IMG/VR virus record: IMGVR_UViG_3300042446_001732
Coordinates: 1-64,000 of that record
DNA length: 64,000 bases
Origin: a virus
Strand: one strand, 5' to 3'
The notes under the pieces were generated by a model that was not told the DNA's origin, made no database searches, and saw only the letters and a list, made by a program, of their open reading frames with translations. Of this stretch, positions 1-57,708 are shown one piece after another. Within the stretch, counting starts at the first letter, position 1. Each line of letters begins with the position of its first letter. The position numbers and the translations under genes are program-made.

Positions 1-260
1 ATAGGACTTGGATCTTGATCGGGTTACTAGGGTTCCGTTGATATGTGAAGCTTGAGTAGGGGGTACCGGTCAACCGCCTCCGCGTAGGAAACTACAATCT
101 CATTATTATAGATGACTGCTGTCACTCAGATGATGCTTTCAATTCACCGTGCATACGGTGAATTATGACCACAGTATCTAGATGATACTTAGTTCAGCTT
201 CGCTTTAAAAACAATGTGTGAGCGACAGCGAAACACATAGATGTGCGCAGCACATCTTGA
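1..260 (+). ncRNA. Putative structured non-coding RNA region, truncated by the window edge
   Basis: No ORF. Dense hairpins: 59-81, GTAG-GAAA-CTAC 84-95, perfect 10-bp stem 141-164, 214-238 with inner GACA loop, 8-bp stem 239-257. Confidence 0.4.
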
Positions 261-265
261 AAGTG

Positions 266-604
266 TTATAAGTTTTGATCTGGCCAGTCTCTAAACAGTG
301 CATGCTGTATGGTTGAGCAATCAACAAACTGATTGAATGATTTGTGTTTAACTTCAAGTTCGCCCTCTAAGGGTGCAACTCGTTTGAATGCTGAATCCAT
401 CTGAGCCATGCCTGTGAACTCCATTAGTATCATCCATTCAGGCATGTCTGCAATGCTACGGAATCCCATCTTGCAGCGTGTGATTCTGTAACTTTCCATC
501 TTGCCTTCGGAAATCAAATGATCAAAGAAACTTTTCATTCCCGTGACCCATTCAAGATCTGAAATGTCGCCGGCCTTGTTGGCCCAGATTGTATAAATGT
601 CCAT
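266..604 (-). CDS. Hypothetical protein, DUF6614-like
   Basis: 112-aa ORF, last gene of a tightly packed minus-strand operon. YRITRCKMGF..EF..MAQMDSAF resembles DUF6614 (from memory). Confidence 0.6.
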   Translation of the reverse strand: MDIYTIWANKAGDISDLEWVTGMKSFFDHLISEGKMESYRITRCKMGFRSIADMPEWMILMEFTGMAQMDSAFKRVAPLEGELEVKHKSFNQFVDCSTIQHALFRDWPDQNL

Positions 605-607
605 GTG

Positions 608-1042
608 TTACTCCAGTGGTCCTAGTATTTCAAACCCGTCCATGTCGGATTTGTACAAGTGTGCTTGTTCAAGATACAGGTATTGAAACCCACGGGCCTT
701 GTAGATAGCACACTCTGCTTTCATTGTTTCTATGCCCAGTCTCAGCCGGGGCTTGTGATATGTCCATGCAAATTGATCACACAAGGCATTGTGATCGTCG
801 TAGCGGCGGATCAGCGAAAACGCCACCAGACGATCCTCGTTGTAGTAGCCAATCACATCGGTCATTGGGTCTGTGTATCTACTGTCAAATATTGGCATCA
901 CACTAGCAAAGTGTTTGTACTTGCAGTAGTCTCTGTAGATTTGATTTAGCTTCACAATGTCAGGATTGAATAGATATTCCCACTTGACATTGATCTGGTA
1001 ATTGGTTTTGCTCAAGTCTATTCTAGCAAACTGATAGCTCAT
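608..1042 (-). CDS. GNAT-fold protein resembling the Arg/Leu-tRNA-protein transferase C-terminal domain
   Basis: YYNEDRLVAFS...FAWTYHKPRLRLG...ECAIYKARGFQYLYL...YK parallels the ATE_C/Bpt consensus (KLVAV...FYDP..SLG...EI.....G..Y.YLG...YK). Confidence 0.6.
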   Translation of the reverse strand: MSYQFARIDLSKTNYQINVKWEYLFNPDIVKLNQIYRDYCKYKHFASVMPIFDSRYTDPMTDVIGYYNEDRLVAFSLIRRYDDHNALCDQFAWTYHKPRLRLGIETMKAECAIYKARGFQYLYLEQAHLYKSDMDGFEILGPLE

Positions 1043-1545
1043 GATCGGGGGTCCGTTCTGTGATTGAACAATGTTGTTAGATAATCATTGGGCCAGGATT
1101 CGTAAAATCCTTTTGAATGCATTTGTGCTGCTGCTGTGTTCAGTTTGCTGAGACTTTGTAGCATGGCCAAGGCATAGGTGCCTTGATTCATGCTGATGCC
1201 GTTGACAATTTCAGCATCTGCAGGATGATCTTCCAACACCAGTAAATCATTCGCTAACAAAAAATCCTGGTTGGCTTGCTCTAAGCTAGAATGAAACAGA
1301 TCATACTTCCATTCTGCAGGATCATAAGCATAGATTATGACTTCTGCTGTGCCCAAGCCGTCTCTACAACGATTGCGCAGATCAAAATACGGGTCTGAAC
1401 CAATTACAATTTTGACTGTGCCCGACAGTCGTGCTTTTCTAGCAAATGGGCAAGGAGCCCAGTTGCCCAGTGCAGGATGCGGAACTTCTACAAAGTTCTC
1501 TACCCAGTGCAAAATATCTTGGGTAACTTGAGTGGGGTCTAGCAT
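1039..1545 (-). CDS. DUF1415-like protein
   Basis: N-terminal W(VENFV)...CPFA motif plus a central HP motif; 4-nt overlap with the next gene. Confidence 0.55.
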   Translation of the reverse strand: MLDPTQVTQDILHWVENFVEVPHPALGNWAPCPFARKARLSGTVKIVIGSDPYFDLRNRCRDGLGTAEVIIYAYDPAEWKYDLFHSSLEQANQDFLLANDLLVLEDHPADAEIVNGISMNQGTYALAMLQSLSKLNTAAAQMHSKGFYESWPNDYLTTLFNHRTDPRS

Positions 1546-1730
1546 TAGAAAAATGGCAGTTTGCTTTTCTTGGTGGTTTCCAAATTGTCTTTGATAATAG
1601 CCGAAATCATCTTGCGTTCGTTGGGACTCAGTGCCAACACTTGATCATAAGTTATGCCACCACGCATGTACCATGACATTTTTAAACTTTCATTTCGGAT
1701 ACTATCGGCCTCCCGCTCCATGCCGTCCAC
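1545..1730 (-). CDS. gp51-like short ORF; probable -1 frameshift extension of the upstream gp26-like gene
   Basis: Its frame stays open upstream to the T-TTT-TTC heptamer at 1775-1781; LSPNER-type motif. Confidence 0.6.
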   Translation of the reverse strand: MDGMEREADSIRNESLKMSWYMRGGITYDQVLALSPNERKMISAIIKDNLETTKKSKLPFF

Positions 1731-1759
1731 TATGTCGGCAATTTCTTCAGCATTAGATG

Positions 1760-2602
1760 TCAGGAGGCGGGTGCGAAAAAACTTGTCATATCCAAGGTCA
1801 AGGGCTGTTCGTAGACGTTATCGCATTCGGTGCAAGTGATACCAACTGGTTTGATTTCAGAATTTTGACGCAGTTCAATCACACAGTCTCGTATCTTGGT
1901 AAACAAGGCTCGATCGCAGTTTTTCAAAAAATCGTCAATGAATTCAGGCTCACTCACAATAGCACTGGGAGTTCGAATGCTAGCAATGCTCCACTTGAGT
2001 GCTTTGAGCGTGAGCTCAGTTATCTTTTTTAGAACCTCTTGCATTCTAAGAATTTTTTCTTTTTCTTCCATGTCTGCTGTTGGCAACAGTTGCATCATCT
2101 TTTGTTCTTCAAACTGCTCTTGATTGGTTATATTCTGACTTTCGTAGTTCATGGGACGGAATGTAATGGTTAAATCACCATGAACCATGGGCTCATCAAA
2201 GTCAGCACTTTTCAACTGATCCAACACAGTTCGCAGGTCTAACACATAATCATCTTCGTGTGTGCAGTTGGGGCATTTGGTGCCAATTTCAAGTTCATGC
2301 CCGTAGCTGGCAATTCGTATGGCAGTCAAAATTGCATTGAGGTCTGGTTGTGGAATTTTCCAAGCATCCTTGATACTGGGTACACAGCTTTGTATTACAC
2401 TGACCACTGCTTGCCCATTGAATAGGCCGTCGGGAGTTCTGTAGGTGATTTCGTCAATGGCAGTCATGGGCAACACAGGCAATTCTCCATTGCCTGGCAT
2501 GTCCAAGGCCCCTGCAGGCCAGTGCTTGCCGCCAGTAGGCAATCGCAAGTAAATTGCAGGCTGTCTAAAGTATTGTCGCAAAGGGTTAGAAGTCTGGGTC
2601 AT
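1760..2602 (-). CDS. gp26: T4 gp26-like baseplate hub assembly / tail chaperone protein
   Basis: LP.G...V.PMT..DE N-terminus, D..AIL.AIR.AS.G motif, two CxxC pairs, ends SFF; divergent from the tape-measure-like gene. Confidence 0.7.
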   Translation of the reverse strand: MTQTSNPLRQYFRQPAIYLRLPTGGKHWPAGALDMPGNGELPVLPMTAIDEITYRTPDGLFNGQAVVSVIQSCVPSIKDAWKIPQPDLNAILTAIRIASYGHELEIGTKCPNCTHEDDYVLDLRTVLDQLKSADFDEPMVHGDLTITFRPMNYESQNITNQEQFEEQKMMQLLPTADMEEKEKILRMQEVLKKITELTLKALKWSIASIRTPSAIVSEPEFIDDFLKNCDRALFTKIRDCVIELRQNSEIKPVGITCTECDNVYEQPLTLDMTSFFAPAS

Positions 2603-2610
2603 AGAACACC

Positions 2611-2618
2611 TATAAATA
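2611..2618 (+). promoter_or_regulatory. T4-type late promoter TATAAATA
   Basis: Exact T4 late consensus 24 nt upstream of the ATG at 2643. Confidence 0.7.
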
Positions 2619-2624
2619 TACTTC

Positions 2625-2632
2625 TACTTATA
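2625..2632 (-). promoter_or_regulatory. Late promoter variant TATAAGTA for the minus-strand gp26 operon
   Basis: One mismatch to the consensus, in the 40-bp divergent gap; TAAGTA also precedes the ORFs at 11478 and 37551. Confidence 0.5.
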
Positions 2633-2642
2633 GGCAATAAAA

Positions 2643-5522
2643 ATGGCTGAAATAAATCGCGAAGCAGAAGAGTTAGCTAGGATAATGGCGCAGGTCAACC
2701 TGGAGATGAACCGGTACGGGCAGCTGACCAAAGAAACAGCCGACAAGAAAAAAGATCTTGAGTTTCGGGCTGCCACCGGTCTACACAACATTACTGAAGC
2801 GACCGACAAAGGGGCAGACGCTGTAATCAATCTTGGCAAAGCCATGATGGGGGCTGCATCGTCAATGTACCAAGGCAAAAAAGGTGCAGCAGCGTTCAAC
2901 AGCAGTGTTGATTCACTGACCACAGCAGCCAAAGCAGCGGCTGCTGGTCTGCTGCTTCTCGGAGGTCCGTTGGGTTTACTAGCAGCAGCAGTAATGGGTG
3001 GTATAGCCGCTCTGGGTGCGTATACCAAAGCTGCCAACGAAATGGGCGACAAGCTCTACGAAGGATATCAAGGTCTAGCTGAGTCGGGTGCAGCAGCCAG
3101 CGACGGTATGACTGGCCTGTTTGAGGATGCCAAAAAGTTAGGTCTCAGCATGGGCGAGCTTGGCAAGTATACTGAACTGATTGGTGCAAATTCCAAAGAC
3201 TTAGCATTGTTGTCAAGTAGTGTATTTGAAGGCCGCAAACGATTTGCTGACATGGGCAAAGCAATGGAGCCGTTCAAAGAATCGTTGATGAATGCTGGTC
3301 TAAGTCAAGATCAAATTAACGCTGGTAGTATGCAGTATCTGCGTTTGCAAACACGCATTGGTCAGAGTCAAAACAAAACTACAACAGAGTTAGCCGAAGG
3401 AGCTAGAAAATACCTAATAGAACAAGATGCGCTAACCAAACTCACAGGTGCAACTAGAAAAGATAACGAAGCTGCCCTTGAAGAAGCTAGATCTCAACAA
3501 CGTTTTCGTGCCAAATTGGATGCCATGCGATCAAGTGGCGATGCAGGACAAATTGCAGCAGCTGATGAACTGGAAAAAACTTATGTATTATTAAGGTCTC
3601 AAAGCAAACAAGCAGCACAAGGTTTTGGAGACTTAACCACTGGCATGATGAACACTGAAGCAGCACAAAAACTCTCAATGAGCACCAATGCTGAAGCTCA
3701 GCAAGTGGCTGGTAAAATGGTGGCAGGTCAGATAAAAGCAATTGACGGCACTCAGCAGATTGCAAGTGCTGCTGGCCGGGTGACCAAAGATTTCAACATG
3801 CTGTATCAAACAGGTGTTGGTGAAGACTTTTTGTTGCCAATTAAAGAAGGTGCTGAGCTAGGTCTGTTGGCGCAAAAAGACTTAAACAAATCCTACGAAC
3901 AAATTAAAGAAGACCAAAAGAAACAAGGTCAAGAAGGTGGCGCAGCAGCAGACAAACTGGTAGCGGCACAAACTAAACTACGAATAGCACAGCAAGCAGG
4001 CAATGAAGCAACAGAGCGATTTGTGCTTGCAGGTGTTGAACCTGCAACCAAGGCCATGACAATACTGGCAAAAACAACCACGGCTGGTGTTGATAGTCTC
4101 AACAAGCTGTTTGGTATTACTCCGTCTAAGGAAACACCTGGTGCACCTCGTGGGCCCGACCTTACAAAAGCCACAGCTGAACTTGATGCTTCAACTGAAA
4201 AAGCCAAGTTGGCCAATGAACGAGCAGCAGCAGCAGAAAAAGATGCTAATTTAACACGAGCAGAAAAAGACAGAGTCAAAAAAGAAGCTCGTGAATCTGA
4301 AGCAGCAGTTATGCAAGACGTTTTTAAACAACGAGAAGCACAACTGAGAGAACAAAATGCACGAAGAGCAGCTCGACGAGCAGGCACTGCTGCACCAGCA
4401 GGTGGGGGAGCAGCGCCAGCAGCAGGCGGAGCAGCACCAGCAGCAGGTGGCGGAGCAGCACCAGCAGCAGCGGGTGGTGGAGCAGCAGCACCAGCAGCAC
4501 CAGTGCCAACTGGTCCGTCTGGAACACAAGGGGAAGCAGCAACACCGGTTGCTCCCAAGGCAGCTCAAGTTTTATCTTTTGGTTCTGGTTCAGGTAGTCA
4601 ACAAAATTTTGCTGGACTCGACGACAGATTAGAAAGTGCAGTAACCAAAGCTGCTGAACAGTACAATGCAACCACAGGCAAAAAAATACAAATCAACAGC
4701 GCAAAAAGAGATCCTGAAAAACAAAAAGAACTGTACGATGCCTGGATTGCTGGGGGCAAACAAGGAATGCCAGTTGCTGCTCCAGGCACTAGCTTGCATG
4801 AAAAAGGATTAGCGGTAGACATACAAAACTACAACGATCCATCTGCAGTGGCAGCAATGAATCAGCAAGGGTTAAAACAAAAAGTACCCAACGATCCTGT
4901 GCATTTTAGCTTTGACGGTGGTGGTGTAATCAAAGGACCAGAGACTGGATACAAGCCCAATCTTACTCTACACGGGGAAGAAGCTTTTATACCTTTAAAA
5001 GACGGTGCTGTGCCTGTTAGTTTGAACTTGAAAGACGCACTGTCAGGCCCAACATTTGCTGGAATGAACGAGTATGCAGGTTACAATATGGGACCAATTA
5101 CCACCGACATTGATGCTGTTAAAAAACTTGCGGAAGCAGTTGGGGCATTTGACAAAACCAGTCAAATAATTACAGATCCTGCTACCTGGAAACAAATTCT
5201 ATCGTCTGGCTTGGCCACAAACTATAACTTGGTCAATGCTGAGTTGGGTACCAAGAGTTTGCCAGGACTAGACCAAGACATGGCTGACCGACTGAAAGAA
5301 ATTAAAGAACAAGGCAATACCACAACAGAAGCAGCACTCAAACAGGTTGGTGAAGAACTTAAAATAGCCTTGAGCAGCATGGCAGAGAAGTATGCTGTGG
5401 CGATGACCAGTCAAGCCCTGTCGATTAACCCATCTGAAATAACACCCCTGTTGCAAGAACTTGTATCTGCTACCAAAAACGGCGTGGATGTACAGCAAAA
5501 GATACTGGCAACCAACTACTAA
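2643..5522 (+). CDS. Tape-measure-like tail protein with an M15 (VanY-type) Zn-peptidase domain
   Basis: Long Ala/Gln/Lys helical region, hydrophobic Gly/Ala segment, Ala/Pro/Gly linker, then INSAKR...SLHEKGLAVD...DPVHF (SxHxxGxAxD..H). Confidence 0.75.
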   Translation: MAEINREAEELARIMAQVNLEMNRYGQLTKETADKKKDLEFRAATGLHNITEATDKGADAVINLGKAMMGAASSMYQGKKGAAAFNSSVDSLTTAAKAAAAGLLLLGGPLGLLAAAVMGGIAALGAYTKAANEMGDKLYEGYQGLAESGAAASDGMTGLFEDAKKLGLSMGELGKYTELIGANSKDLALLSSSVFEGRKRFADMGKAMEPFKESLMNAGLSQDQINAGSMQYLRLQTRIGQSQNKTTTELAEGARKYLIEQDALTKLTGATRKDNEAALEEARSQQRFRAKLDAMRSSGDAGQIAAADELEKTYVLLRSQSKQAAQGFGDLTTGMMNTEAAQKLSMSTNAEAQQVAGKMVAGQIKAIDGTQQIASAAGRVTKDFNMLYQTGVGEDFLLPIKEGAELGLLAQKDLNKSYEQIKEDQKKQGQEGGAAADKLVAAQTKLRIAQQAGNEATERFVLAGVEPATKAMTILAKTTTAGVDSLNKLFGITPSKETPGAPRGPDLTKATAELDASTEKAKLANERAAAAEKDANLTRAEKDRVKKEARESEAAVMQDVFKQREAQLREQNARRAARRAGTAAPAGGGAAPAAGGAAPAAGGGAAPAAAGGGAAAPAAPVPTGPSGTQGEAATPVAPKAAQVLSFGSGSGSQQNFAGLDDRLESAVTKAAEQYNATTGKKIQINSAKRDPEKQKELYDAWIAGGKQGMPVAAPGTSLHEKGLAVDIQNYNDPSAVAAMNQQGLKQKVPNDPVHFSFDGGGVIKGPETGYKPNLTLHGEEAFIPLKDGAVPVSLNLKDALSGPTFAGMNEYAGYNMGPITTDIDAVKKLAEAVGAFDKTSQIITDPATWKQILSSGLATNYNLVNAELGTKSLPGLDQDMADRLKEIKEQGNTTTEAALKQVGEELKIALSSMAEKYAVAMTSQALSINPSEITPLLQELVSATKNGVDVQQKILATNY
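4381..4505 (+). repeat. Imperfect in-frame GCAGCACCAGCAGCAGGYGG repeats encoding a GGAAPAA linker
   Basis: Four to five degenerate copies visible in DNA and protein. Confidence 0.8.
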
Positions 5523-55819: not shown

Positions 55820-56962
55820 ATGACGAATTTTTACTGTGCAGCCCCTTGGCGTGGCCTGCATATCAATCCCCGAGGCGATGTAAAAACCTGTTGTGCTGGC
55901 GACCCCAACATGCTGGGCAATTTAAACACACAGACCATCGAACAGATCCTCAACAGTGATTTGATGACAGAAATTCGTGGCAGCATTGCCCAGGGCCAAA
56001 GTCATCAGTACTGTTCAAACTGTGTGCAAGCCGAGCGCCATGGCGGTGACTCCGAACGAGCCTGGCACAACCGTGACAATCCCAATTTTGATTTTGCCAA
56101 GGCCGGTGACAAATATCACTATCCAGTCATTGTTGATATTCGTTGGAACACCACTTGTAATCTAAGTTGCAACTATTGTATGGAATATTGCAGTTCAAAA
56201 TGGGCCGCGTTGAAAGGTATTCCTGTCAAGTCTGGTACTAGACCCTACTACGAACAAGTGTGTGATTTCATCGAGCAACATTATGAACACATTCACGAAG
56301 TGGCACTGGTAGGCGGCGAGCCGTTGTTGCTGCCAGAAAATAATCGCTTGCTGGACGTGATACCTAAAGATGCAGTTGTTACCTTGATTACCAATCTTAC
56401 CGGCGATCTTGAAAACAATCGAATATTTCAAAAACTAGCAAAACGAAATCGTGTTGGCTGGAGTATGAGCTTTGACAACATAGGCCCAAGATTAGAATAT
56501 GTTCGCTATGGCGCTGGTTGGGAAGAAATACAACGCAACCTTGCCCTGGTCAAAAATCTAATGACCACACAGGGACACTCAGGCGGCATACATGCAGTGT
56601 ACAACATATACAATGCCACACGCATCTGTGAACTGCGTGAGTTTGCCAAACAGACTGGAACCACTGTGCTATGGCAGAATCTTTTTCAACCCGACTACCT
56701 TGATCCATTCTTGCATGGTCCAACAGTTGCTGCCGAAGCAATTGCTGAGATTGAGCGCTTTTATGCATCAGGCATTGCTACCGCTGCTGAACGGGTGTTC
56801 TTTGACCGTGCATTGCAGAGCTATCGTTCAGTGACCCACCCACGGCCCAATATTGAACATCAGTTTGCACAGCATATTCAACAGATTGAAAATCAGTACC
56901 ACCCAGACTCAAAAGGACAGTTTACAAGTTTGTGGCCTGAACTAGCAACACTATGCAAATAA
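55820..56962 (+). CDS. Radical SAM protein with an N-terminal SPASM/twitch-like domain
   Basis: C..PW...G.V..CC...C..C, then CNLSCNYC and GGEP. Confidence 0.9.
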   Translation: MTNFYCAAPWRGLHINPRGDVKTCCAGDPNMLGNLNTQTIEQILNSDLMTEIRGSIAQGQSHQYCSNCVQAERHGGDSERAWHNRDNPNFDFAKAGDKYHYPVIVDIRWNTTCNLSCNYCMEYCSSKWAALKGIPVKSGTRPYYEQVCDFIEQHYEHIHEVALVGGEPLLLPENNRLLDVIPKDAVVTLITNLTGDLENNRIFQKLAKRNRVGWSMSFDNIGPRLEYVRYGAGWEEIQRNLALVKNLMTTQGHSGGIHAVYNIYNATRICELREFAKQTGTTVLWQNLFQPDYLDPFLHGPTVAAEAIAEIERFYASGIATAAERVFFDRALQSYRSVTHPRPNIEHQFAQHIQQIENQYHPDSKGQFTSLWPELATLCK

Positions 56963-57708
56963 CAACACCTTGGCATTTTGGAATACCGTATGCTGGCTAT
57001 ACCTCTGAATGGTTGCCCACAGACACCAAAGAAAATTTTCAACGGCTCATGCAAGAGCCCAAGCATCAAGAGTATTTTGGCAGCAAAGGGTGGGACCAGC
57101 CTGGTGCAATCACCTACAAAATAAACAGTCACGGATTTAGATCAGAAGAATTTGATCCTGCTGCGCCTAGTATAGTGTCATTGGGTTGCAGTTATACCAT
57201 TGGTATTGGCCTACCTGAACATGCTACCTGGTCACACCTGGTCGCGCAAGCCACAGGATTAAAAAACTACAATCTGGCCTGGGCTGGTACCAGTGCAGAC
57301 ACATGCTTTATGCAGGCGCAGTATTGGTTGCCTATATTGCGTCCTAAACTGGTGGTAATGGTGGCCCCTCCCAAACACAGATTTGATTTGATTTCAGAAG
57401 ATCCTACACTGCCACATGACACATACATGTCTTCGGGCGGATCGTGTGAATCATATCGTGACAATTTTGTCAAAACTTGGCTGCTGAATGATCGTAACGC
57501 AGAGTTAAATAGCTCACGTAATCGATGGGCAGTGCAAGGATTATGTGCTAACCTGGGCATTGCATGTTTGACCTACGATGCACATGAATGGTTTGCCAAG
57601 AGTCGTGAAGAATTAGAATACGCAAGAGACCACATGCACGCCGGCCCCCGTGGGCATCAGCTACTAGCAGAAAGAATCATAAATGATTGGCGCAAAAAAC
57701 ACACTTGA
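56953..57708 (+). CDS. SGNH/GDSL-like hypothetical protein
   Basis: NSHGFR, LGCSYT.G.G, NL...G, ARD..H.G..GH motifs. Confidence 0.55.
   Translation: MQITTPWHFGIPYAGYTSEWLPTDTKENFQRLMQEPKHQEYFGSKGWDQPGAITYKINSHGFRSEEFDPAAPSIVSLGCSYTIGIGLPEHATWSHLVAQATGLKNYNLAWAGTSADTCFMQAQYWLPILRPKLVVMVAPPKHRFDLISEDPTLPHDTYMSSGGSCESYRDNFVKTWLLNDRNAELNSSRNRWAVQGLCANLGIACLTYDAHEWFAKSREELEYARDHMHAGPRGHQLLAERIINDWRKKHT

Follow-up and report, generated by a model that had tools for sequence, protein, structure and literature searches.

A single-domain ATE/Bpt-superfamily protein in a conserved gene cassette of large uncultured myoviruses, a candidate module of arginine chemistry

The subject of this report is a three-gene cassette on the minus strand of IMG/VR virus record IMGVR_UViG_3300042446_001732, of which positions 1 to 64,000 were analysed (the window, 64,000 nucleotides in full). 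The window forms the start of a 98 kb record with a CheckV completeness of 29% and carries a myovirus structural module consisting of portal, major head protein, tail sheath and gp26-like baseplate hub; related records reach 343-353 kb. The cassette comprises open reading frames (ORFs) 1 to 3, encoding a protein with an invariant cysteine loop, a single-domain relative of the Ate1 and Bpt aminoacyl-tRNA transferases, and a DUF6614 protein, respectively. The interpretation we prefer, at a probability of about 0.5, is that these genes constitute a small enzyme module of arginine or guanidino chemistry within the structural region of large uncultured myoviruses.

In the mechanism we propose, ORF2 would most likely act on charged tRNA, transferring the aminoacyl group at its 3' end to an amine acceptor, and the donor, judged from a glutamate retained from the Ate1 pocket, would probably be arginine or another basic residue. 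ORF1, in fold a minimal relative of AglA and the other YqcI/YcgG thiolate-haem N-oxygenases, would probably use Cys32 to oxidise this substrate or the resulting product. ORF3 would serve as a tightly co-conserved accessory protein, and an amidinotransferase homologue would be a fourth member in some relatives. Homology, fold, retained catalytic residues and gene linkage are observed for these proteins; we infer that they share a pathway, that ORF2 depends on tRNA, which amino acid it takes as donor, and that ORF1 binds haem. Arginine or guanidino chemistry is favoured because the ORF2 pocket glutamate, the AglA-type fold of ORF1 and the amidinotransferase of relatives coincide.

ORF2, a minimal member of the ATE/Bpt superfamily

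When 1.8 billion representatives were searched exhaustively with phmmer, 126 relatives of ORF2 were recovered, and those of 225-268 aa cover ORF2 residues 7-139 and exceed the gathering score of the Pfam family ATE_C. Homologues overall score 25.0-33.8 bits against this model, including short marine homologues that reach the cut-off with 25.0 and 31.3 bits. A profile of 24 family members (A1) was compared with the Protein Data Bank (PDB), and its five best matches were all Ate1 (E 0.009-0.035), with no acetyltransferase among them. A PDB search with the single ORF2 sequence gave noise only, and the ESM Atlas held self-like viral clusters only. The AlphaFold2 (AF2) model of ORF2, with a predicted local distance difference test (pLDDT) score of 94.8, is one complete GNAT domain with the fold of the aminoacyl-tRNA (aa-tRNA) transferase type. 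Foldseek searches with this model placed MprF/aaPGS, Ate1 and the aa-tRNA-dependent peptide synthases Sba18/Sbb17 on top, and VIA-align returned Z 15.2 to MprF residues 640-838 and Z 14.5 to FemX, the VIA matches always being the second GNAT of tandem enzymes. Because both long and short relatives pass ATE_C, profile A1 finds Ate1 and the fold agrees, ORF2 belongs to the ATE/Bpt superfamily, of which it is a minimal form with a complete single GNAT domain. The original prediction, made from the DNA letters without database searches, had described ORF2 as having only the C-terminal-like half of a split or minimal transferase. "Minimal" stands, whereas the half proves to be a whole domain and "split" is not borne out by homology. 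By profile and structure searches the protein is ATE/Bpt-like rather than an ordinary acetyl-CoA GNAT.

Active-site residues were mapped through the profile A1 alignment to KlAte1 (chain index equal to residue number plus 4, an offset checked on four residues), and the mutagenesis of KlAte1 was taken from PMC9351520. ORF2 W93 corresponds to KlAte1 W260, T106 to S273, E110 to E277 of the arginine pocket and L122 to Y289. In KlAte1 the charge of E277 recognises the arginine side chain, Bpt having Gln at this position, and activity is lost or nearly lost in E277K and E277A while E277D is like the wild type (PMC9351520). The donor side-chain pocket reads C88/T106/E110/L122 in ORF2, S255/S273/E277/Y289 in KlAte1 and A/A/Q/L in Bpt, which makes the acidic E110 Ate1-like and L122, a leucine also in Bpt, Bpt-like. 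The ORF2 residues Y39...H44 match KlAte1 Y173...H178 by spacing. The catalytic pair Y303-K304 of KlAte1 (K305 in FemX), in which Y303F and K304A are inactive (PMC9351520), corresponds to ORF2 Y130-K131, a pairing placed by motif position and not by aligned structure. Y130 does not vary, and at least 90% of sequences have K131. Conservation of W93, E110 and K131 extends over both the short and the long families, where Y130 is mostly kept; in the long forms the lysine is near-invariant.

Aligned with the long forms, ORF2 lacks an N-terminal region of about 55 aa and a C-terminal GFEWWTGxEW extension, and it begins at the beta-strand that closes the ATE_N region in longer relatives. In the ORF2 tree (a quick method with the root unknown) the short forms are nested inside the long ones with 99% support in the Shimodaira-Hasegawa-like approximate likelihood ratio test (SH-aLRT). 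By this nesting, ORF2 is a trimmed derivative of viral ATE/Bpt-like transferases of 225-270 aa.

Conserved partners of ORF2

On the minus strand the gene string runs from a gp26-like gene through ORF0, ORF1, ORF2 and ORF3 to a terminator-like hairpin (Table 1). The junctions are tight, being TAATG between ORF0 and ORF1, ATGA between ORF1 and ORF2, and TAAcacATG with an upstream GGAG between ORF2 and ORF3. Three tightly coupled ORFs following gp26 on the same strand, as originally described, are confirmed, with the correction that the 61-aa ORF0 stands between gp26 and ORF1. The hairpin and its T-rich tail are kept in relatives and likely mark the operon end. ORF0 is present in 76 of 80 related loci and in long-form lineages, and it matches no family among Pfam and PHROG profiles. 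It adjoins gp26 in every lineage, and the stop-to-stop frames of the two overlap in many loci.

Clustering at 90% identity gave about 3000 clusters for ORF2 and about 1900 for ORF1. Ratios of nonsynonymous to synonymous substitution (dN/dS), approximate values since dS is saturated, were 0.08 for ORF2, 0.08 for ORF3, 0.16 for ORF1 and 0.16 for gp26, indicating a stronger purifying constraint on ORF2 and ORF3 than on gp26. Because of these thousands of clusters and low ratios, the trio are genuine genes.

For adjacency counts, 80 close loci and 80 long-form loci were fetched, of which 51 and 52 had sufficient flank (at least 1.5 kb on both sides for the close loci). The order ORF1-ORF2-ORF3 is kept in all 51 close loci. 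ORF1 lies within 2 kb of the ORF2 homologue in 51/51 close and 44/52 long-form loci, and ORF3 adjoins it in 51/51 and 29/52. Long forms have at least 529 viral contig matches; among the 80 fetched, ORF1 is adjacent in 69 and ORF3 in 48. The cassette genes are thus found together in hundreds of uncultured phage contigs and in at least five layouts. The commonest long-form layout is gp26-ORF0-ORF1-[ORF2]-ORF3 with ORF2 inverted in the same slot, and a further one has ORF2 followed by a co-directional, overlapping ORF1. ORF1 and ORF2 also overlap in locus L082, and a marine T4-like lineage has ORF2-X-ORF1-gp25-gp6 or the same without ORF1. On the ORF2 tree, ORF1 adjacency changes five times and ORF3 adjacency four times. 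The trio therefore occurs together widely outside this record, and from gene neighbourhood a functional partnership of its members is likely. Three candidate fusions of ORF2 with ORF1 or ORF3 (P0256, P0321 and P0335) look chimeric or repetitive and were rejected, leaving no real fusion, and two longer DUF6614 proteins are singletons.

The AF2 model of ORF1 has a pLDDT of 95.1. Foldseek returned nothing significant for it, with AglA chains as its only full-length matches. In a Foldseek-independent search of 48,161 chains, AglA 9ub3 was the sole match with Z of at least 5, aligning 151 of 168 residues at Z 7.6 and a root-mean-square deviation of 3.9; the next best chain reached 4.4. AglA is a YqcI/YcgG enzyme that N-hydroxylates AMPn-Arg with a haem ligated by Cys44, and this substrate was prepared with ArgRS, tRNA and AglC in an Arg-tRNA-dependent manner (PMC12866846). 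The argolaphos cluster likewise pairs its YqcI/YcgG gene with GNAT aa-tRNA ligases (PMC8976061). Invariant residues of ORF1 are W14, C32, P33, A35, D106, H107, Y124, Q130, Y148, W151 and Y155, and Cys32 lies in an invariant W14...P-C32-P-F-A (PCPFA) loop. This cysteine would be the counterpart of the axial Cys44 in the FPC motif of AglA (DFPCFWG in a YqcI example), the equivalence being by position only. ORF1 matches phrog_28122 and phrog_10325; its best Pfam match, DUF6875, stays below threshold (18.7 bits, cut-off 24.5). Its profile found no match in the PDB, and the ESM Atlas gave self-like viral clusters plus weak DUF1415/DUF6875 labels. Elsewhere the ORF1 family adjoins or overlaps 2-oxoglutarate (2OG)-Fe(II) oxygenase genes, as in L125 (S-SCSM2R 56301-57571) and L127 (CRP-810), and in the cyanophage S-SCSM2R this pair again sits beside gp25/gp6.

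ORF3 matches PF20319 (DUF6614) over its full length with 74.8 bits against a cut-off of 25 (E 7.2e-21), so the DUF6614-like label first given to it is solid. At identities down to 45%, its family keeps 37 columns without variation, and the stretch R40/R43/K45/R49 is invariant. The ORF3 profile has no relative in the PDB, and none of the trio has a match in NCBIfam or PADLOC. Bacterial DUF6614 genes (in 6 of 301 Pseudomonadota genomes) and bacterial DUF1415 genes have no ORF2-like neighbours. The anti-Druantia protein Druad1, said to be a DUF6614 protein, was considered as a guide to ORF3 and dropped, as it has only 44 aa and no homologues (10.1101/2024.04.14.589459).

In some relatives, about 1.1 kb of extra DNA between the cassette genes is a coupled gene of 380-409 aa. 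Its profile matches the PDB entries of HsvA (E 1.9e-14), AGAT (1.9e-13), SxtG (8.7e-12) and StrB1 (7e-9), and the catalytic His (HID) and Cys (GGIHC) motifs of L-arginine amidinotransferases are kept and aligned. This homologue, which is below threshold in Pfam and NCBIfam models, adjoins ORF2 homologues in about 20 loci of several lineages and layouts at 27-100% identity, inserted in the ORF2-ORF3 or the ORF1-ORF2 interval (e.g., L021:4432-5574 and L035:2775-4004).

tRNA dependence and competing explanations

Several results weigh against an arginine module fed by charged tRNA. The segment after beta-1 of ORF2 (residues 11-32) has 22 residues with 3 K/R, compared to 30-36 aa with 7-14 K/R in distant viral long forms, and the basic helix that should follow beta-1 is missing. 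This helix binds the tRNA acceptor stem in aa-tRNA transferases (PMC9351520, PMC10115844), and it is conserved among the aa-tRNA transferases compared and absent from other GNAT enzymes (PMC9351520). The ATE_N domain is missing as well, with neither its Cys cluster nor its acceptor residues (R80, Y25 and Y87), and no ATE_N-like protein is present among the ORF2 neighbours. All three cassette proteins are acidic (predicted isoelectric point, pI, 4.9-6.4) and so offer no obvious RNA-binding surface to substitute for the helix. The lost helix together with this acidity is the chief argument against a simple tRNA dependence, which, because the helix is gone, we put at about even odds. The 98 kb record contains no tRNA gene, and none was found near the cassette in 44 related loci. 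It also contains no amidinotransferase gene. The ATE_C-like label of the original prediction, supported by relatives, profile and fold, is not carried by the score of ORF2 itself, which is below threshold at 14.7 bits against 25 (E 0.049).

The case for ORF1 meets similar objections. Its Z to AglA is only moderate, the PF08892 (YqcI/YcgG) model finds nothing in the record at E of 10 or less, alignment A3 has no invariant Arg or Lys for haem propionates, and the C-terminal gating loop L2 of AglA is missing (168 aa versus 243 aa). Members of the ORF1 family are found with no ORF2 homologue in cultured cyanophages, HMO-2011 and roseophages as well (S-PM2, Syn1, S-RIM44, S-SCSM2R, HMO-2011 and CRP-810). 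ORF1 had initially received a DUF1415-like label with CPFA. The W...CPFA and FHP motifs are common to ORF1 and genuine DUF1415 proteins, but the PF07209 (DUF1415) model does not match ORF1, and hhalign of the ORF1 family to DUF1415 gave E 0.0014 with 18% probability over the N-terminal 33 columns only.

The loss of the helix and the acidity of ORF2 would also fit an ORF2 that had given up tRNA altogether and now served the same arginine module as a GNAT dependent on acyl-CoA or another cofactor, or as a non-catalytic binding subunit. The VIA scores leave room for this idea, since they do not separate tRNA users from CoA users among tandem GNATs (VipF 14.5, NMT 13.8). However, the Q/R-x-x-G-x-G/A CoA pyrophosphate loop between beta-4 and alpha-3 is not in ORF2, which has L100-R-L-G103-I-E105 there (family consensus LRLGIxS). 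Moreover, the Y-K pair, W93 and E110, all of importance for aa-tRNA use in Ate1, are under strong purifying selection, and the sequence profiles lead to Ate1 instead of any acetyltransferase. Such a change of cofactor is therefore unlikely, though it survives better than the two explanations that follow.

A neighbour might instead supply in trans what ORF2 has lost, with ORF3 or ORF1 providing the tRNA- or acceptor-binding function of a split enzyme. The distribution of DUF6614 genes is suggestive in this respect, as all 28 ORF2 homologues with a DUF6614 neighbour are helix-less while none of 15 helix-keeping homologues has one; ORF3 has its invariant R40/R43/K45/R49, and ORF2 and ORF3 are equally and unusually conserved. 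Yet helix state changes only twice on the tree, giving two independent pairs and a sign-test p of 1, so the association is essentially that of one clade or event and serves as a lead, not as evidence. In addition, 16 helix-less forms have no nearby DUF6614 gene, ORF3 itself has a pI of 5.1, and no fused forms were found. The suggestion that a neighbour holds the missing part finds no support as a claim of homology: ORF1 has an AglA-like fold and is not ATE_N-like, ORF3 is a DUF6614 protein and not ATE_N-like either, and the whole trio is acidic. We regard a split enzyme as improbable.

N-terminal arginine is a secondary destabilising residue in bacteria with Aat, which would suit an ORF2 that acts in the Bpt/Ate1 sense as an N-terminal aminoacyl-transferase, tagging host or phage proteins for N-degron (ClpS/ClpAP-type) degradation beside unrelated ORF1 and ORF3. 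Such tagging would also accord with the superfamily that ORF2 shares with Bpt and Ate1 and with its Y-K pair and pocket Glu (PMC9351520), but it is equally improbable, since ORF2 has no ATE_N domain with which to recognise an acidic N-terminus (R80, Y25, Y87), the AglA-like and amidinotransferase linkage has no place in it, and the cassette sits in a structural operon and not among early host-takeover genes. Protein tagging and small-molecule modification were both put forward originally; because of the AglA-like and amidinotransferase partners, tailoring is favoured over N-degron tagging, and arginine chemistry on a small molecule or side chain is the more fitting of the two.

Users of aa-tRNA outside translation are few, comprising Ate1/Bpt, Aat, FemXAB, MprF, cyclodipeptide synthases and some antibiotic tailoring enzymes, and we know of none described in phages. 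Our literature search found no description of ATE-like genes in phages and none of the cassette. Among GenBank phages (INPHARED), tblastn found no relative of ORF2, of its short marine form, of the long form or of ORF3, and window bases 1-3000 had no DNA match. The ORF2 family is very abundant in aquatic viromes. Extended to its fullest, and here we are tentative, the preferred interpretation would have large aquatic phages encode a self-contained pathway of three to four enzymes. In it, arginine might be drawn from charged tRNA by a stripped Ate1-like domain without the canonical helix and its guanidino group remodelled by haem-thiolate N-oxygenation (with amidino transfer in some), yielding, late in infection, a modified arginyl conjugate on a virion protein or small molecule. 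If true, viruses would thereby have their first known tRNA-dependent tailoring pathway of the "natural-product" style. If active, ORF2 would be the smallest known scaffold of the aa-tRNA transferase class and would test how much of the tRNA-binding apparatus is dispensable. Its activity would also represent new phage-encoded arginine chemistry, with a target of possible relevance to the maturation of virions or the manipulation of the host. If ORF2 no longer uses tRNA, it shows an Ate1-type active site re-used for another purpose.

Surroundings of the cassette and comparison with known systems

Beyond the ORF3 terminator, on the minus strand at window positions 1-238, lies a non-coding element that is near-identical even between phages sharing only about 55% protein identity in gp26. 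Counterparts lie at about 4840-5170 in L004, L010, L011, L020, L032, L044, L061 and L062. In two variant groups, compensatory changes maintain one of its hairpins, ATTCACCG/CGGTGAAT, and some covariation is also seen in a long-range helix. The element has no Rfam match and contains no tRNA; it extends about 200 nt beyond the window start and is incomplete here, and some relatives are without it. On the other side of the cassette, divergent from gp26, the plus-strand gene at 2643-5522 encodes a protein of 959 aa. It contains an extended low-complexity stretch rich in Ala, Gly and Pro and, at residues 654-775, a domain resembling an endolysin or peptidase, and is likely a hub or tape-measure protein that carries a lytic domain. 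A late-promoter-like box, TATAAATA, is located at 2611-2618.

Table 1 Features of the cassette and its immediate surroundings in the window
Feature	Positions	Strand	Remarks
gp26-like baseplate hub gene	1760-2602	-	PF12322 E 1.6e-12; phrog_150 baseplate hub; heads co-directional string
ORF0, 61 aa, small conserved ORF between gp26 and ORF1	1545-1730	-	stop overlaps ORF1 start
ORF1, 168 aa, Cys-loop (PCPFA) protein, AglA-like (YqcI/YcgG-type) sandwich fold	1039-1545	-	candidate thiolate-haem oxygenase
ORF2, 144 aa, minimal single-GNAT ATE/Bpt superfamily member	608-1042	-	
ORF3, 112 aa, DUF6614 protein	266-604	-	PF20319; most conserved cassette member
Terminator-like hairpin	239-257	-	directly after ORF3 stop codon

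Loci of relatives provided further observations. The ORF2-like gene of the marine T4-like lineage comes after a gene for a SET-domain protein (PF00856, E 3.7e-9; L107:4595-4969) and is followed by the overlapping gene of protein X (L107:5423-6079, L095:3417-4076). Protein X, with 218 aa and a match to phrog_3704, sits between the ORF2-like and ORF1-like genes and is unrelated to the 2OG oxygenase in the same position of cyanophage S-SCSM2R. A "ferredoxin" label for protein X was not trusted, as one Cys is conserved between the two copies compared and there is no Pfam match. In two viral contigs, ARAGORN reported tmRNA-like genes that precede the long-form transferase by about 2 kb (L196:1631-2027 and L207:1878-2241). 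Long-form matches in "bacterial" genomes are short contigs of metagenome-assembled genomes (MAGs) with phage genes, with the exception of L123. On this 149 kb contig of a Candidatus Magasanikiibacteriota MAG, a 219-aa Bpt-like protein with a basic helix (L123:4587-5246) is flanked by MraY-like and Mpl/MurC-like ligase genes, neighbours that were identified by reading their sequences. In this candidate phyla radiation (CPR) bacterium, the protein may represent an ATE-lineage transferase that acts on the cell wall and depends on tRNA.

Compared with Ate1 (KlAte1 7WFX, ScAte1 7TIF/8E3S) and Bpt, ORF2 has the same SLG-type motif, YLYLG, Y-K pair and Trp, and with Ate1 it also shares the pocket Glu. 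These enzymes have about 235-520 aa, whereas ORF2, with 144 aa, is without the ATE_N Cys/Zn (Fe-S) and acceptor domain, the basic tRNA helix and the C-terminal segment, and its partners, an AglA-like protein and DUF6614, are also unlike theirs. The ORF2 acceptor is probably not an acidic protein N-terminus. The best structural matches, with Z 13-15 over the whole of ORF2, are the second (C-terminal) GNAT domains of MprF/aaPGS, FemX and Sba18/Sbb17, all of these enzymes being tandem GNATs of 290-340 aa as opposed to the lone domain of ORF2.

Among the closest known systems to ORF2 plus ORF1 is the pair AglC plus AglA of argolaphos biosynthesis in Streptomyces monomycini, an Arg-tRNA-dependent GNAT and a Cys-ligated haem enzyme (PMC12866846, PMC8976061). 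The two systems differ in their parts. AlpF of the argolaphos cluster, taken to be AglC, is a 342-aa tandem FemX-like GNAT of the PF13480 type, while ORF2 is ATE-like; AglA, at 243 aa, includes a gating loop and basic ligands of the propionates, both missing from ORF1; the phage proteins match none of the Pfam models of the argolaphos system, and there are no phosphonate genes here. The L-arginine amidinotransferases AGAT, StrB1, SxtG and HsvA, in turn, resemble the optional fourth gene of relatives at E values of 1e-9 to 1e-14.

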